A stretch of 64,000 nt of DNA from Escherichia phage vB_EcoM_G2540, in sequence record MK327936.1; one strand, written 5' to 3'. Below are positions 2,798 through 38,744 of this stretch, in pieces. The notes under the pieces were generated by a model. It was not told the DNA's origin and did no database searches. It saw only the letters and a program-made list of their open reading frames with translations. The stretch's first letter is position 1, and every line of letters starts with the position of its first letter. Both the position numbers and the translations under genes were made by a program.

Positions 2798-3391
2798 TTA
2801 TTTCAGAGAATTAATGTATTCCTGAACATCGGCAGAGGTAGTTTCAACCCCAGAAATATTGCCATTAAAGGTTTCAACTCGAGCAAGAGTATCTTCAATA
2901 TCAACCTTAGTCAGTGCTGCAATTTCAACTACATCATCAGCAGTACTAATTCCGAGGGCATTCGCAGCACGAGTTTCACGGATATATTCCAATTTAACTG
3001 CAAGTTCTTGGCGAGCATCATCTAACTCAACTACTTTCTTGGCGATTTCAATTCGCATTTCAGCATAACCATCAGCTTTAGTAGTCAACTGCTCAGCTGT
3101 TCGACGATATAGTAAACCAAGTTTAGCATGCATTGTTACATCTTGACCTTCGGAAAGAAGCTTGCGAATTTCGCGCTCTTTTGATTCGGCTTGTCGATTC
3201 TTTTCGACAATAAGTTCACGAATACGTTTTTCTTCATTAATAGATTTAACGGAAGCAGTTTTTAGGTCTTTAATCTTATCAAGTAGTTTTGCTGCCGCAG
3301 CGGTATACTGCTCTTCAACAGATAGATTTTTAGCCATAGCAGAACCAAGTTTAGTGCGAATAAACTCAACAATTTTCTTCAGTGTGTTCAT
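2798..3391 (-). CDS. Coiled-coil protein, tentatively PspA/IM30-like (e.6-like)
   Basis: 197 aa, long heptad-like charged helical segments ([27 protein letters not shown]...[25 protein letters not shown]) resembling PspA architecture; family assignment unverified. Confidence 0.5.
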
Positions 3392-3434: not shown

Positions 3435-3611
3435 TTATACTCCGGATAGTTTGTAAACTATTTCAACATCGCCTTTTGCTGCTTTATAACCTTCAGCCCA
3501 AGATACAACCGAGTTTTTATCTGAAGATTCAAATTCTGGCATTGGGCTTTCGCCAATGTTCACGCAGTATGTTTCTTCATTTTCGTCAAACCAAATAATT
3601 AAAGTAGTCAT
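3435..3611 (-). CDS. Small hypothetical protein (58 aa; e.7-like), below ORF-track cutoff
   Basis: ATG (rc) at 3609-3611 preceded by GGAG SD; translation MTTLIIWFDENEETYCVNIGESPMPEFESSDKNSVVSWAEGYKAAKGDVEIVYKLSGV; fills gap between flanking genes. Confidence 0.4.
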   Translation of the reverse strand: MTTLIIWFDENEETYCVNIGESPMPEFESSDKNSVVSWAEGYKAAKGDVEIVYKLSGV

Positions 3612-3680: not shown

Positions 3681-3956
3681 TTATTTCATATTATTGAAAT
3701 ATTCTTCTGCGATTTCATCGTTATCATGGTAAACTTTAGAAGACAGTTTAACATAACCTTCAGCAGTGAACATGTTAATCACAACCTTTACAGTATACCA
3801 CTGACCGTCTTCATTACCCATTACTGCATAAGTTTCAAACATCGGATGGTCAGGACCGATAACTTTAATATCATTCACTGTACGACCAAAATCTTCTGAA
3901 ACACATTTCATAAAGAAGTTGAACAGTTCGCCGTAATTATCCATTTCATTCTCCAA
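3681..3956 (-). CDS. Hypothetical protein (e.8-like)
   Basis: 91 aa ORF, first gene downstream of an early-promoter-like element. Confidence 0.55.
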   Translation of the reverse strand: MENEMDNYGELFNFFMKCVSEDFGRTVNDIKVIGPDHPMFETYAVMGNEDGQWYTVKVVINMFTAEGYVKLSSKVYHDNDEIAEEYFNNMK

Positions 3957-3987
3957 GTTGTTTTCTGTATCAGTAGTTGATAGTTGT

Positions 3988-4037
3988 ATAGTACCATGGA
4001 AGAACAGGGATGTAAACAGTTTTGTGAAAAAATTTTA
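3988..4037 (-). promoter_or_regulatory. T4 early-type promoter (GTTTAC -35, 18-nt spacer, TACTAT -10) with conserved upstream TTTCACAAA element
   Basis: Minus strand reads ...CACAAAACTGTTTACA-N-TACTAT; same architecture at 7893-7940 and 8261-8309. Confidence 0.5.
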
Positions 4038-4150
4038 AAAAGTTTTGGGGAATTCTAGGGCAGGGAGGGGCAATTAAAGGATAGGATAATATATTATAAA
4101 GGGTAGAAACTAAATGATGCCTAGAGAGGCCCGGAAAGGCCTAGATACCA

Positions 4151-4180
4151 AAAAGCCCCAACCTTTCGGTCGGGGCTAAG
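4151..4180 (-). terminator. Rho-independent terminator (copy 1 of a 30-bp repeat)
   Basis: Minus strand GCCCCGACC-GAAA-GGUUGGGGC followed by UUUUU; 30-bp sequence aaaagccccaacctttcggtcggggctaag identical to 4706-4735. Confidence 0.7.
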
Positions 4181-4184
4181 AATG

Positions 4185-4658
4185 TTATTTGATTTGTTTA
4201 GCAGACCAAATGCGGTCTTTAATAATTTTTTGAATGTCTTCAACATACTCTAGGTCATGAGCATGTGGATTATCTTTGAAACTATGAGCTCGCGCAAGTT
4301 TCTGGCCTTCGGTCTTAATTATCAAAAGTTCTTTAAGAATTGCTTCATACCTGGAGATAATTCCTTTAGCAATATTTTTTTCTTGTGCTGCTTTAGTGTC
4401 AGCCTTAGGAGCAGGTTTACCTGAAGCCTTTGCAAAAGCAGCTCCAGTAGCAACTAAACTTTTCCAAGCCATACTAACTGCATTCCCTGTAAATCCTTCG
4501 GCTTTCATATCACGAGCAAATTGGAATCGTGATTCATCGGAAGCATCTTTATAGGAATATTTACCCGCGGCAATGGCAGCTTTTGCGACAGCTTGAATTT
4601 CGGTGCTAGATGCTTCATTTAACACCGCTTCATTTAAAAATTGAGCATATGATTTCAT
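4185..4658 (-). CDS. Internal-protein-like protein with N-terminal capsid-targeting-like sequence (MKSYAQFLNEA)
   Basis: 157 aa ORF; N-terminus resembles the T-even IP capsid targeting sequence MKTYQEFIAEA with LxE motifs (LNE/A) typical of gp21 protease sites; late promoter TATAAATA 37 nt upstream; flanked by identical terminators. Confidence 0.6.
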   Translation of the reverse strand: MKSYAQFLNEAVLNEASSTEIQAVAKAAIAAGKYSYKDASDESRFQFARDMKAEGFTGNAVSMAWKSLVATGAAFAKASGKPAPKADTKAAQEKNIAKGIISRYEAILKELLIIKTEGQKLARAHSFKDNPHAHDLEYVEDIQKIIKDRIWSAKQIK

Positions 4659-4694
4659 CTTATTTCCTGTTTTAATTCGTGGTTTTAATATACT

Positions 4695-4702
4695 TATTTA
4701 TA
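4695..4702 (-). promoter_or_regulatory. Late promoter box TATAAATA for the IP-like gene
   Basis: Plus tatttata at 4695-4702 = TATAAATA on minus strand, between terminator copy 2 and the ATG at 4658. Confidence 0.55.
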
Positions 4703-4705
4703 CTA

Positions 4706-4735
4706 AAAAGCCCCAACCTTTCGGTCGGGGCTAAG
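4706..4735 (-). terminator. Rho-independent terminator (copy 2 of the 30-bp repeat); end of tRNA/stable RNA transcription unit
   Basis: Identical hairpin plus U-run as at 4151-4180. Confidence 0.7.
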
Positions 4736-4740
4736 CCTTG

Positions 4741-5040
4741 CGGCAACCTTGTTGGGGTTCCACCTGCTAAGGCAAGTGTTTGTACGAAACGCCGGGATTC
4801 GAACCCGGTTATTAAGTAGTTGACGCTACTCAATATTTTTAAAAGGCCATATCTCGACCATATCCGAACGTTCCGTCAAAAACGCTACTCGGCTTACGGC
4901 AAAGATATTTCCTCGAATCGATAATTCGGTGCGCCGTTTCTGCTGTGATAGTAAAGAATCAGAACACAGTAAAACTGTGGGAGAAACTATACTCCAGGGA
5001 ACATCAGTCCGACGACTTACCGGTAGCGACCCGGTTTCTT
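4741..5040 (-). ncRNA. Stable tRNA-like RNA region (candidate equivalents of T4 species 1/2 RNAs, rnaC/rnaD)
   Basis: No protein ORF; contains a canonical T-arm (CCGGG-UUCGAAU-CCCGG, plus 4792-4808) plus flanking potential acceptor pairing, directly downstream of tRNA-Arg as in T4; exact ends not determined. Confidence 0.4.
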
Positions 5041-5122: not shown

Positions 5123-5788
5123 TTAAAATTTCATTTTTCGACCTTTAAACCATCCTTCTGGAATTGGGTCAGTTTTCTTAATAAGTTTAGAAACTTTTTC
5201 ATCTAATGAATGAATCCACATCATACCAAATTGGGAATTCTTTTCGCCTTGTTGGTGTTTATTTCTGGCGTGAGATTCTTTCATTTTATTAATAGTTTCA
5301 AGAGTATGGGTCTTACCCAAGAAAGATTTAGTATTTAAAAATTTCTCTCTATACTTAGGATTATCCCAAAGCTGTTTAAACCTTTCTGAACCCATTTTAC
5401 GATATTTTTCTTTAAGGTCTGGGTCGTTCTCAAATCTGGTTTTAAAAGCGGCAGCTCCTTTTAAGGAAGCTTCTTTCTTTTTATCCAAATATTCTTTAGT
5501 GTTTAAATGGTCCCAACCACCTTCACCACCTAATTTCAAATTATAAACATCAGGGCGCTTTAAAAACTCTTCAGTCACAATATTCTTTTCTGACTCAAAC
5601 ATAGAGGTTTTATCGTCAAAGAACTCTAATATTTCTTTAGAAAAATTTTCTATACCATACTTATCTTGGGCTCTTTTTAATAATTTACCAGAACCCATAT
5701 ATCCATCATCTAAATTTTCGGTAGAATGCACACCAATATAAATTTTATTATTAATTTTATTTGTTATTTTATAAGTGTAATGGAACAT
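5123..5788 (-). CDS. segB: GIY-YIG homing endonuclease (SegB-like) embedded in the tRNA cluster
   Basis: 221 aa; N-terminal GIY-YIG module (YTYKITNKINNKIYIGVH...GYMGSG); location between tRNA genes as for T4 segB. Confidence 0.8.
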   Translation of the reverse strand: MFHYTYKITNKINNKIYIGVHSTENLDDGYMGSGKLLKRAQDKYGIENFSKEILEFFDDKTSMFESEKNIVTEEFLKRPDVYNLKLGGEGGWDHLNTKEYLDKKKEASLKGAAAFKTRFENDPDLKEKYRKMGSERFKQLWDNPKYREKFLNTKSFLGKTHTLETINKMKESHARNKHQQGEKNSQFGMMWIHSLDEKVSKLIKKTDPIPEGWFKGRKMKF

Positions 5789-6240: not shown

Positions 6241-6327
6241 TGGTACGAGAAGTGGGACTCGAACCCACAAGGAAATCATTCCGCAGCATTTTAAGTGCTG
6301 TGCCTTTACCAATTTGACCATTCTCGC
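6241..6327 (-). tRNA. tRNA-Leu (UAA), long variable arm, CCA encoded
   Basis: Acceptor GCGAGAA/UUCUCGU, anticodon stem CAGCA/UGCUG loop CUUAAAA, T arm GUGGG-UUCGAGU-CCCAC. Confidence 0.85.
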
Positions 6328-6328
6328 G

Positions 6329-6401
6329 CTGGGAATAAAGGACTCGAACCTTTGCATCTAGCAGTCAAAGTGCTATGCCTTACCAACTTGGCTAATTCCC
6401 A
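6329..6401 (-). tRNA. tRNA-Gln (UUG)
   Basis: Acceptor UGGGAAU/AUUCCCA, D arm GCC..GGC, anticodon stem UAGCA/UGCUA loop CUUUGAC, T loop UUCGAGU. Confidence 0.85.
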
Positions 6402-6487
6402 ATTATTAACAAAGGCTCTCAAACAAGAACCCTTGATGATAGAGGGTATTAATCAGTGCGGTATGAGTTAATAATAACAAATAATTC

Positions 6488-7892: not shown

Positions 7893-7940
7893 ATAGTATC
7901 ACAACTAAAACCCTATGTAAACAACTTTGTGAAAAATTTA
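7893..7940 (-). promoter_or_regulatory. T4 early-type promoter (GTTTAC / 18 nt / TACTAT) with TTTCACAAAGTTGTTTACA upstream element
   Basis: Minus-strand motif; near-identical element at 8261-8309 and 3988-4037. Confidence 0.5.
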
Positions 7941-8225
7941 TTACAAAAGATTTTTTGCAATAATTTTAAGCTGAGCTACTGAAATATGCTTGGCTTTAAA
8001 CAAAGCAGTTTCTTCAGCAGGGGAGATAACGATTGTAGCACCATCTTTCTTAGCGGACCATCCATCACCCAGGTAAACAGTACCTTTGACTTCTTCGCCA
8101 TCAACCAGGCTAATCATCGGTTTACCTTCACGTCCTTTGTTTGCTTTAATAACTTCAGAAGTAAGGGTCGCTTCAGTCAAAGTAGAAGCGTTAGTCGTTG
8201 AAGTGAATTCTTGATAAGTTTTCAT
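7941..8225 (-). CDS. ipI: Internal protein I-like (capsid-packaged, CTS MKTYQEF...)
   Basis: 94 aa; N-terminal MKTYQEFTSTT... capsid-targeting-like leader with LTE/A and LTSE/V candidate gp21 cleavage sites; position upstream of 57B as in T4. Confidence 0.7.
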   Translation of the reverse strand: MKTYQEFTSTTNASTLTEATLTSEVIKANKGREGKPMISLVDGEEVKGTVYLGDGWSAKKDGATIVISPAEETALFKAKHISVAQLKIIAKNLL

Positions 8226-8260: not shown

Positions 8261-8999
<739 letters not shown>

Positions 9000-36841: not shown

Positions 36842-37266
36842 TGCTTCTGATCCCTGAAACTCATGAATTAGTTCTCGAGAATGTCGAAGCACTTATTCCT
36901 GAAGCACAGGGTCGCTTTGACGAATTGTCTTCTGCTTTAAATAAAGACGATATAAATACAATTGTCGAGAATATGCTTGATGATGAAACTGATTTAGCGG
37001 TTGCATTAGCTTCTATTAATGAAAATATGCCGTTAAATGAATTCATCGTTAAACATGTTTCCGCCCGTGGTGAAATTACTCGCACTAAAGACCGCAAAAC
37101 GCGTGAACGTAATGCATTTCAAACCACTGGACTGTCTAAAGCAAAACGTAGACAAATTGCTCGTAAAGCTACCAAAACGAAGATTGCCAATCCAGCAGGT
37201 CAATCTCGTGCTCAGCGTAAGCGTAAAAAAGCTCTTAAACGCCGTAAAGCATTAGGATTAAGCTAA
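36841..37266 (+). CDS. 68: gp68 prohead core protein
   Basis: 141 aa, basic C-terminus. Confidence 0.85.
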
Positions 37267-37904
37267 TGAATGAACCCCAATTACTAATTGAAACTTGGGG
37301 TCAACCTGGCGAAATTATTGATGGCGTACCAATGCTTGAATCTCATGATGGAAAAGACTTAGGTTTAAAACCGGGTTTATACATCGAAGGAATATTCATG
37401 CAAGCGGAAGTTGTCAATAGAAATAAACGTCTTTATCCAAAACGTATATTAGAAAAAGCGGTAAAAGACTATATTAATGAGCAAGTTTTAACTAAACAAG
37501 CTCTCGGAGAATTAAATCATCCTCCACGCGCTAATGTTGACCCAATGCAAGCCGCTATCATTATAGAAGATATGTGGTGGAAAGGAAATGACGTATACGG
37601 ACGAGCTCGTGTTATTGAAGGTGACCATGGTCCTGGAGATAAATTAGCAGCTAATATTCGTGCCGGATGGATTCCAGGAGTTTCTTCTCGTGGATTAGGT
37701 TCATTGACTGACACAAATAAAGGTTATCGTATCGTAAACGAAGGATTCAAATTAACTGTAGGTGTTGATGCAGTATGGGGTCCAAGTGCTCCAGATGCAT
37801 GGGTAACTCCTAAGGAAATTACCGAATCACAGACGGCGGAAGCCGATACAAGTGCCGATGACGCCTATATGGCTCTCGCAGAGGCCATGAAAAAAGCGTT
37901 ATAA
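37266..37904 (+). CDS. 21: gp21 prohead core protease
   Basis: 212 aa. Confidence 0.93.
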   Translation: MNEPQLLIETWGQPGEIIDGVPMLESHDGKDLGLKPGLYIEGIFMQAEVVNRNKRLYPKRILEKAVKDYINEQVLTKQALGELNHPPRANVDPMQAAIIIEDMWWKGNDVYGRARVIEGDHGPGDKLAANIRAGWIPGVSSRGLGSLTDTNKGYRIVNEGFKLTVGVDAVWGPSAPDAWVTPKEITESQTAEADTSADDAYMALAEAMKKAL

Positions 37905-37934: not shown

Positions 37935-38744
37935 ATGCTTAAAGAACAACTGATTGCCGAAGCGCAGAAAATTGATGCTTCCGTTGCTCTTGATAGTATT
38001 TTCGAATCAGTTAATATTTCTCCGGAAGCAAAAGAAACTTTCGGCACTGTATTCGAAGCTACCGTCAAGCAGCACGCCGTTAAATTAGCTGAATCTCATA
38101 TCGCTAAAATTGCTGAAAAAGCAGAAGAAGAAGTAGAAAAAAATAAAGAAGAAGCCGAAGAAAAAGCTGAGAAGAAAATCGCTGAGCAAGCTTCTAAATT
38201 CATTGACCATCTTGCAAAAGAATGGCTCGCTGAAAATAAATTAGCAGTTGATAAAGGCATCAAAGCCGAACTGTTTGAATCCATGCTTGGTGGATTAAAA
38301 GAGCTCTTTGTTGAACACAACGTTGTTGTTCCAGAAGAATCAGTTGATGTTGTAGCTGAAATGGAAGAAGAGCTGCAAGAACATAAAGAAGAATCAGCTC
38401 GTCTGTTCGAAGAACTCAATAAGCGTGACGCATATATCAATTATGTGCAGCGTGAAGTGGCATTGAGCGAAAGTACTAAAGATCTGACTGAGTCTCAAAA
38501 AGAAAAAGTCTCTGCTCTGGTCGAAGGTATGGATTATTCAGATGCATTCTCAAGTAAATTGAGTGCAATCGTAGAAATGGTGAAGAAATCTAATAAAGAT
38601 GAAAGCACTATTACTGAGAGTATAAATACTCCTGATACTGAAGCAGCCGGACTGAATTTCGTCACTGAAGCTGTAGAAGATAAAGCTGCACAAGGTGCAG
38701 AAGATATTGTAAGTGTATATGCGAAAGTCGCATCTCGTTTCTAA
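37935..38744 (+). CDS. 22: gp22 prohead scaffolding core protein
   Basis: 269 aa acidic coiled-coil protein. Confidence 0.93.
   Translation: MLKEQLIAEAQKIDASVALDSIFESVNISPEAKETFGTVFEATVKQHAVKLAESHIAKIAEKAEEEVEKNKEEAEEKAEKKIAEQASKFIDHLAKEWLAENKLAVDKGIKAELFESMLGGLKELFVEHNVVVPEESVDVVAEMEEELQEHKEESARLFEELNKRDAYINYVQREVALSESTKDLTESQKEKVSALVEGMDYSDAFSSKLSAIVEMVKKSNKDESTITESINTPDTEAAGLNFVTEAVEDKAAQGAEDIVSVYAKVASRF

Follow-up and report, generated by a model that had tools for sequence, protein, structure and literature searches.

The 64,000-nt stretch of Escherichia phage vB_EcoM_G2540 DNA analysed here (sequence record MK327936.1; hereafter the window) contains a 157-aa gene placed between two copies of the same transcription terminator, which raises the question of what this gene encodes and how it came to be bracketed in this way. 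An earlier note on the sequence had proposed a modular gene for an internal protein (Ip) of the T-even type. The checks suggested in that note came out in its favour where they were applied, and we arrived at a similar answer, which we regard as likely: the 157-aa gene would encode an unrecognised T-even internal protein that is expressed late, targeted by its leader and a candidate for an injected anti-defence protein, and recombination between the terminators would make the alleles of the site.

The window is part of a Tequatrovirus (T4-like) genome, in which the genes of the cassette part are on the minus strand. The closest database matches for the 1.2-kb region were Tequatroviruses at 95-96.5% identity, not T4. 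On one side, nudE (512-967) is followed by the e.2-e.8 series, whose last member before the 157-aa ORF is e.8 (3681-3956; both on the minus strand). Within this series, a 58-aa ORF (3435-3611; phrog_5461, RB14ncORF134c type) occupies the position of T4 e.7 (111 aa), another replacement polymorphism in the e.x series. On the other side, upstream of the cassette, lies rnaC (species 1 stable RNA; 4783..4921, minus strand), the final gene of the tRNA transcription unit, which is 99.3% identical to T4 rnaC. Beyond it, rnaD (4928-5039, minus strand) is only 78% identical to T4 rnaD, although it adjoins an rnaC at 99%. Rfam held no family for rnaC or rnaD and matched nothing inside the cassette. The minus strand continues beyond rnaD with tRNA-Arg, a segB-like gene and seven further tRNAs. 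This segB-like homing endonuclease gene (5123-5788) is 84.5% identical to T4 segB; the tRNA regions of slur03 and PinkRuby have no segB-like gene, carry extra tRNAs (His, Asn, Tyr) and have a 116-aa ORF as an insert that separates tRNA-Arg from rnaD. Small ORFs overlapping the terminator, the late promoter and rnaC/rnaD (4672-4833 on the minus strand of the window; 2275-2576 in L001) are entered as "hypothetical proteins" in several GenBank records and are probably spurious calls. Farther along the minus strand are ipI (7941-8225; Pfam IPI_T4, about 1e-51 [1.3e-51]) and then 57B, 57A, 1 and 3. The gene of the gp21 prohead protease (37266..37904, plus strand; Pfam Peptidase_S77, 1.5e-111) is followed by that of the gp22 scaffold (37935-38744; T4_CASP, 1.7e-89).

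The 157-aa gene has its own expression signals. A Shine-Dalgarno sequence, AGGAAA (4663..4668, minus strand), was read 4 nt upstream of the ATG, and ipI and Ip7 have an AGGAAA-TAA-ATG context resembling that of the 157-aa gene. The T4 late-promoter motif TATAAATA, which the earlier note had assigned to this gene, was found at 4695..4702 on the minus strand, 36 nt upstream of the ATG, where it abuts the T-run of the upstream terminator. A promoter scan detected no early-type promoter between the upstream terminator and the ATG. At the motif level, this arrangement points to late expression, which is compatible with prohead-core assembly. In WG01 (Dhakavirus) and KpV477 (Jiaodavirus), the homologue is likewise preceded by a terminator joined to TATAAATA, and metagenomic relatives have 7/8 variants of the motif.

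The two terminator copies, which had been described as identical over 30 bp, proved to be exact over 31 nt (4150-4180 and 4705-4735), with the 30-nt coordinates inside, and the longer direct repeat of 4145-4180 versus 4700-4735 matched at 35/36 bases. The upstream copy (4705..4735, minus strand) is the intrinsic terminator that closes the tRNA/rnaD/rnaC transcription unit and is the sole copy in T4; the downstream copy (4150..4180, minus strand) closes the 157-aa gene. Each forms a GC-rich stem of 10 bp that is capped by a GAAA loop and has a T-run after it (-20.3 kcal/mol; folding z = -4.9 and -3.5 for the two copies), and a terminator scan called both on the minus strand. With 3 mismatches allowed, the 64-kb window still contained exactly two occurrences of the 30-mer, compared with 0 in 100 shuffles. 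Recombination between the copies would remove exactly 555 bp. A separate early-promoter module (TTTCACAAAGTTGTTTACA...) is present in three copies that are 67-82% identical (3988-4029, 7893-7934 and 8261-8302). The latter two bracket ipI, as reported for classical IP loci. The remaining copy (3988..4029, minus strand), identified by repeat comparison, the promoter scan and the SA20RB promoter annotation, is the promoter of e.8 and lies immediately downstream of the 157-aa cassette, so that the new site has one classical IP-locus repeat.

In T4, just a 284-bp intergenic segment separates e.8 from rnaC, with no ORF in this interval and a single terminator copy downstream of rnaC. Positions 1-236 of this segment map to 3945-4179 of the window and positions 202-284 to 4700-4782. 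The two pieces overlap by precisely the 35-nt repeat, a mapping that in the alignment marks a 555-bp indel with a direct repeat at its borders. An evenly spaced sample was drawn from 682 records matching the T4 junction, and examples were fetched to resolve the alleles. Three classes emerged from the sample: sites that are contiguous and empty (T4, T2, RB10 and others), a large number that are ~555 bp longer, and sites with larger inserts. The empty allele (T4, T2, RB10) has terminator A only, and the allele of the window, SA20RB and slur03 reads terminator A, late promoter, 157-aa gene, terminator A. RB14 has a different gene of 187 aa, in the order A, 187, B, and JB75 and PinkRuby have both genes, in the order A, 157, A, 187, B. 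The hairpin of terminator B differs from that of terminator A, yet the same GGTATC sequence follows both. The junctions in RB14, JB75 and PinkRuby were within terminator A or the T-run of terminator B, and most presence/absence breakpoints were inside the terminator repeats. The gene-content polymorphism that the earlier note had suggested looking for among T-even genomes thus exists, as empty, 157, 187 and double alleles.

The 187-aa gene (RB14 [L008], 2824-3387; JB75 [L009], 2814-3377; PinkRuby [L003], 1786-2349) begins with the leader MKTYAEFLTEA and was found in 165 phage records; in RB69 it is split by a frameshift into ORF148c/149c. By BLASTP, its product is similar to the 157-aa protein in the leader alone, and phrog_2280, the family of the 157-aa protein, also contains the RB14ORF136c-type 187-aa protein, again alike only in the leader.

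The terminator copies co-vary within genomes. PinkRuby has the GCCCCAGCC variant in both copies of terminator A, and in WG01 two copies of a diverged terminator, CCCTTCCGAAAGGTTGGGC, spaced 1132 bp apart, enclose the homologue. Because such genome-specific variants are common to both copies, they indicate that exchange between the copies is continuing. The terminator-bracketed interval of WG01 also has a 184-aa ORF (L006, 3010-3564) with a hydrophobic N-terminus and no leader, so the bracketed unit is not limited to leader-bearing genes. The family was found downstream of the tRNA cluster also in WG01, in the Klebsiella Jiaodavirus KpV477 and in metagenomic T4-like contigs; in the contigs, the gene lies between a hairpin with a late-promoter-like motif and, on the other side, a hairpin with an early promoter. 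A simple recent insertion was rejected, because the same position is held in Dhakavirus, Jiaodavirus and the metagenomic T4-like contigs. The 157-aa gene is thus an old resident of the site, and the empty T4/T2 allele more likely a deletion between the repeats than the ancestral state. The proposal of modular, exchangeable cargo therefore stands in that an allelic series is seen, but it has to be adjusted in that the gene is old at the site and the empty T4 site more likely a deletion.

Translation confirmed the 157-aa ORF (4185..4658, minus strand; phrog_2280 = RB32ORF133c), annotated here as a predicted internal protein that would be packaged in the head and injected. Its N-terminus is MKSYAQFLNEAVLNEA, and it opens MKSYAQFLNEA as previously noted. 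Codons 1-15 (4614..4658, minus strand) encode a capsid-targeting-sequence-like leader, MKSYAQFLNE/AVLNE/A, where slashes follow two L-x-E sites of the type that gp21 cleaves. The corresponding leaders are MKTYQEFIAEA in IpII and IpIII, MKSYQEFINEA in WG01 Ip7 and MKTFKEFTSTT...ITE/A in T4 IpI. Compared with the IpII/IpIII leader, MKSYAQFLNEA is identical at 6/11 and similar at 9/11 positions. The leader pattern was matched by just two of the window's 702 ATG-started ORFs, ipI and the 157-aa ORF. The BLOSUM62 score of the first 11 residues against MKTYQEFIAEA was 34, compared with a mean of -2.1 (sd 7.1) in the ORF background (z ~5). Judged by these comparisons, the leader resemblance is not due to chance.

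Packaging of IpIII needs only its first 10 residues, among which positions 4 and 7 are critical for targeting and 8 and 10 for processing, and gp21 cleaves after L/I-x-E (review of Black's work, PMC9026906). The 157-aa leader retains all of Y4, F7, L8 and E10, and the resemblance to MKTYQEFIAEA held in alignment with the IpI, IpII, IpIII and Ip7 leaders. The 157-aa leader has Q at position 6 instead of the E found in most leaders. The L-x-E motifs pointed out in the earlier note lie at residues 8-10 (L8-N9-E10/A11) and 13-15 (L13-N14-E15/A16), with a third at 108-110. A putative gp21 processing motif is thus present at the end of the leader, and the third site could in principle be cut as well. 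The pattern M-x-x-[FY]-x-[ED]-F-[LV]-x-E is kept in homologues that are <40% identical and have differing C-terminal domains. The homologues that keep it include those of Yersinia phage fHe-Yen9-01 and Klebsiella phage KP01, and metagenomic proteins whose N-termini read MLKFNEFLAEG, MINFSDFLNEG, MKSFSSFLNEG and MISFNEFV...ITES. The codons of the conserved leader residues differ synonymously between genes, indicating that selection acts on the peptide.

Searches with the whole protein placed it in phrog_2280 (PHROGs v4; full-length match at 1.2e-58), a family with no assigned function. Orthologs occur in 511 phage records, with 94-99% identity across most Tequatroviruses. Their dN/dS of 0.06-0.10 indicates that the gene is real, constrained and under purifying selection. 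Both the 157-aa and the 187-aa genes are annotated "hypothetical protein" in every record among the matches listed, and the WG01 record names Ip7 and Ip9 in the ipI locus and leaves the homologue of the 157-aa gene unnamed. The predicted mature protein has a mass of ~15.5-16 kDa and a pI of 9.4-9.6, compared with 9.0-9.65 for IPI*, IPII* and IPIII* and 9.5 for the 187-aa neighbour. The AlphaFold model (mean pLDDT 76) is all-alpha, with a low-confidence/disordered leader; in the body, a disordered linker rich in lysine and proline joins a three-helix N-domain to a helical hairpin. Beyond its own orthologs, the mature part had no counterpart in the Pfam, PDB and fold searches: Pfam gave sub-threshold noise only, and its IPI_T4 family (PF11634) matched just ipI of the window and not the 157-aa protein; Ip2 and Ip3 belong to other PHROGs. 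A profile search of PDB sequences had a best E-value of 2, and Foldseek with the AlphaFold model gave no match to PDB at E <= 0.001 and only its own orthologs in BFVD. The same searches (Pfam, PDB profile, Foldseek against PDB and BFVD) yielded no fold or sequence likeness to known anti-defence proteins. The body therefore appears, in the model, to be an orphan all-alpha fold, and an orphan mature part is a described trait of Ips (PMC3012670, PMC12373910).

The family combines a conserved N-domain (AGKYSYKD...AWKS) with either of two C-terminal domains, ending ...DRIWSAKQIK or ...VGDVGRHYKKL (P0010, P0011, P0015, P0017-P0019), which suggests domain swapping. Truncated or frameshifted 157-aa alleles were found in P0006 (SfPhi01), P0008, P0009 and KpV477 (L007, 2495-2731), consistent with frequent functional loss of a dispensable gene.

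Published mass spectrometry bears on the question of packaging, for which the earlier note had suggested analysis of virions. In the Yersinia phage fD1 (phiD1), g140 was detected by LC-MS/MS in a virion preparation at the strict threshold and was scored PPAP (PMC8309999 Table S3); it has 157 aa and is 94.9% identical to the protein of the window. In that preparation MotA, Ndd, topoisomerase, DenV and thymidine kinase likewise counted as particle-associated, alongside 672 host proteins (PMC8309999). Because non-structural and host proteins were scored there too, the detection is unspecific. A 95%-identical ortholog has thus been found by virion proteomics (PMC8309999 Table S3), but in a contaminated preparation, and the result is weak support for packaging; it reflects expression and co-purification, not specific packaging.

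When these observations are combined, the 157-aa gene would be transcribed late from its own TATAAATA promoter, and the first ~10 residues of its product would act as a capsid targeting sequence, docking the protein onto the prohead's scaffolding core of gp22. Cleavage by gp21 would follow, after E10 and/or E15 (L-N-E/A), which predicts the neo-N-terminal peptides ASSTEIQAVAK or AVLNEASSTEIQAVAK and would leave a basic, all-alpha protein of ~15.5 kDa in the head. The mature protein would be ejected into the host together with the DNA. Ip1, Ip2 and Ip3 suggest, by analogy, that it would most likely counteract one of the host's first-response defences there, with a modification-dependent (GmrSD-type) nuclease as the most plausible target. 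Homologous recombination of the terminator copies would delete or reshuffle gene units, giving empty, single and double alleles. We infer packaging, cleavage, injection and an anti-defence target from the T4 paradigm. The inhibition of a host defence is the weakest of these steps; it draws on the 3/3 characterised T4 Ips, against which the negative results with ip4-10 have to be weighed.

Repoila et al. reportedly found about 10 Ips by their leader in 1994, at two polymorphic loci flanked by promoter/stem-loop repeats, and the 2007 work of Comeau et al. is cited for ">30 IP variants". The 157-aa gene probably represents a new Ip family at a third IP locus; the kind of protein is known, the member and the site are apparently unrecognised, and Comeau et al. 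2007 may list the family. A 2010 paper by the same laboratory states that T-even genomes have no IP genes elsewhere and describes the repeats of the IP loci as an early-promoter/AT-rich stem-loop element (Arbiol et al. 2010, PMC2839356). T4 Ip1, Ip2 and Ip3 each inhibit a distinct GmrSD (Type IV restriction) nuclease, as reported in a study that speaks of "the two Ip loci" and tested ip1-10 only; ip4-ip10 gave no reproducible GmrSD inhibition, and several GmrSD variants active against T-even phages are still without a known inhibitor (Silas et al. 2025, PMC12373910). The family motif AGKYSYKD was not found in the text supplementary files of that study. Internal proteins are not discussed in Petrov 2010, Nolan 2006 or the BrxU/Durham collection paper, and the fPS-2/65/90 paper has no proteome in it. 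Literature searches on Ip7/Ip9/Ip10 returned unrelated papers only, and a search on MKTYQEF returned vaccine-engineering papers only.

The assignment as an internal protein is favoured by the leader, the basic mature part with its orphan fold, the low dN/dS, the polymorphism of the site and the virion detection of g140. In addition, the window encodes both gp21 and gp22; the unrelated 187-aa gene, at this same site, has the same kind of leader; the terminator-fused late promoter is conserved across genera; and the three T4 Ips that inhibit GmrSD provide, by analogy, a precedent. Against it, the virion detection is unspecific, the site is outside the two canonical IP loci and its flanking repeat is a GC-rich intrinsic terminator, the leader departs from most others at position 6 and a third L-x-E is present, the strong conservation (94-99%) is unlike a fast arms-race gene at the sequence level, the searches gave no likeness to a known anti-defence protein, and the ip4-ip10 negatives mean that "Ip = GmrSD inhibitor" is no general rule. 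We hold more tentatively, as a possibility that may well fail, that this is a third IP locus with its own recombination module, consisting of an intrinsic terminator that is duplicated and fused to a late promoter, and at least two unrelated leader-bearing occupants, whose injected proteins would disarm defences beyond the reach of Ip1-3.

Conservation and charge are also what the best-surviving alternative explains. In this alternative, which we consider unlikely, the protein is packaged via its leader but has no anti-defence role, being either a basic DNA-condensing or DNA-organising head protein or a dispensable, largely degraded core component. A pI of 9.5, the lysine- and alanine-rich linker (KASGKPAPKADTKAAQEK), high conservation with low dN/dS and the lack of reproducible inhibition of the tested GmrSD systems by ip4-10 would all suit such a protein. 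However, the gene is absent from T4, T2 and RB10 and is often frameshifted, and is therefore dispensable, with no general structural role, and all three functionally characterised T4 Ips are defence inhibitors.

Less probable still is an ordinary late cytoplasmic accessory protein that is not packaged and whose leader likeness reflects shared translation-initiation ancestry or chance. The SD-ATG-AAA context is indeed alike among these genes at the DNA level, and all records among the matches listed call the product hypothetical. Nevertheless, the amino-acid motif is kept despite synonymous changes and across very divergent homologues, the four experimentally critical leader positions are retained, an unrelated second gene at the site has the same kind of leader, expression is late-only at the motif level and an ortholog was detected in a virion preparation. 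Equivalence to a tRNA-linked T4 gene (cef or similar), placed by the tRNA cluster for that reason, can practically be set aside despite the proximity of rnaC, rnaD and tRNA genes in several genera, as the 157-aa gene has its own late promoter, is set apart from the tRNA operon by a terminator and is not similar to RNA-processing families (Pfam); cef itself, suggested earlier as a positional equivalent, is rejected, because it lies ~64 kb away in T4 (71 aa, 216 nt including the stop, at 6267-6482), whose interval at this site contains no ORF.

If the 157-aa protein is an injected internal protein, the defences that it disarms might include GmrSD variants that act on T-even phages and lack a known inhibitor. 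A third locus would also help to explain host-range differences between the laboratory phages T4 and T2, with their empty site, and most Tequatroviruses from the wild. No phage protein enters the host cytoplasm earlier than the internal proteins. A leader-bearing family that T4 and T2 lack and that occurs in 511 phage records is a ready-made candidate, and together with the 187-aa gene alongside it offers a third locus for screening. The terminator-bounded 555-bp unit is also a clean natural case of short regulatory repeats adding and removing accessory genes in T4-like genomes.

Two known systems are close to this cassette. The T-even Ips (IpI-III and Ip4-Ip10; Repoila 1994, Mullaney & Black 1996, Silas 2025) share with the 157-aa protein a 10-residue leader with an aromatic residue at position 4, F7 and L/I-x-E at 8-10. 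Small size, basic charge, dispensability and a mature part with no relation to other Ips are further common traits, and the gene likewise has a late promoter, presence/absence polymorphism among close relatives and bracketing by repeated regulatory DNA. The protein differs in having no similarity to any named Ip beyond the leader, and its packaging, processing, injection and target are predicted from sequence and analogy. The gene lies between rnaC and e.8, whereas the described IP loci adjoin 57B or lie between denV and e; it is flanked by the duplicated, GC-rich rnaC terminator in place of the ~70-bp early-promoter/stem-loop repeats of those loci. This non-canonical locus is a matter of location, not of mechanism.

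The second system is the PeSL cassettes of RB49 and phi1 (Arbiol et al. 2010, PMC2839356). PeSLs, which are numerous throughout hyperplastic regions, combine a sigma-70-like early promoter with a GC-rich stem-loop terminator, whereas the hairpin described here is coupled to a late promoter and has two copies only in 64 kb. In both systems, short repeats with a strong terminator hairpin bracket non-essential ORFs, and indel breakpoints are inside the repeats. Recombination of neighbouring copies explains insertion, deletion and replacement in both, with a small circle as by-product, which is predicted to be 555 bp at this site.
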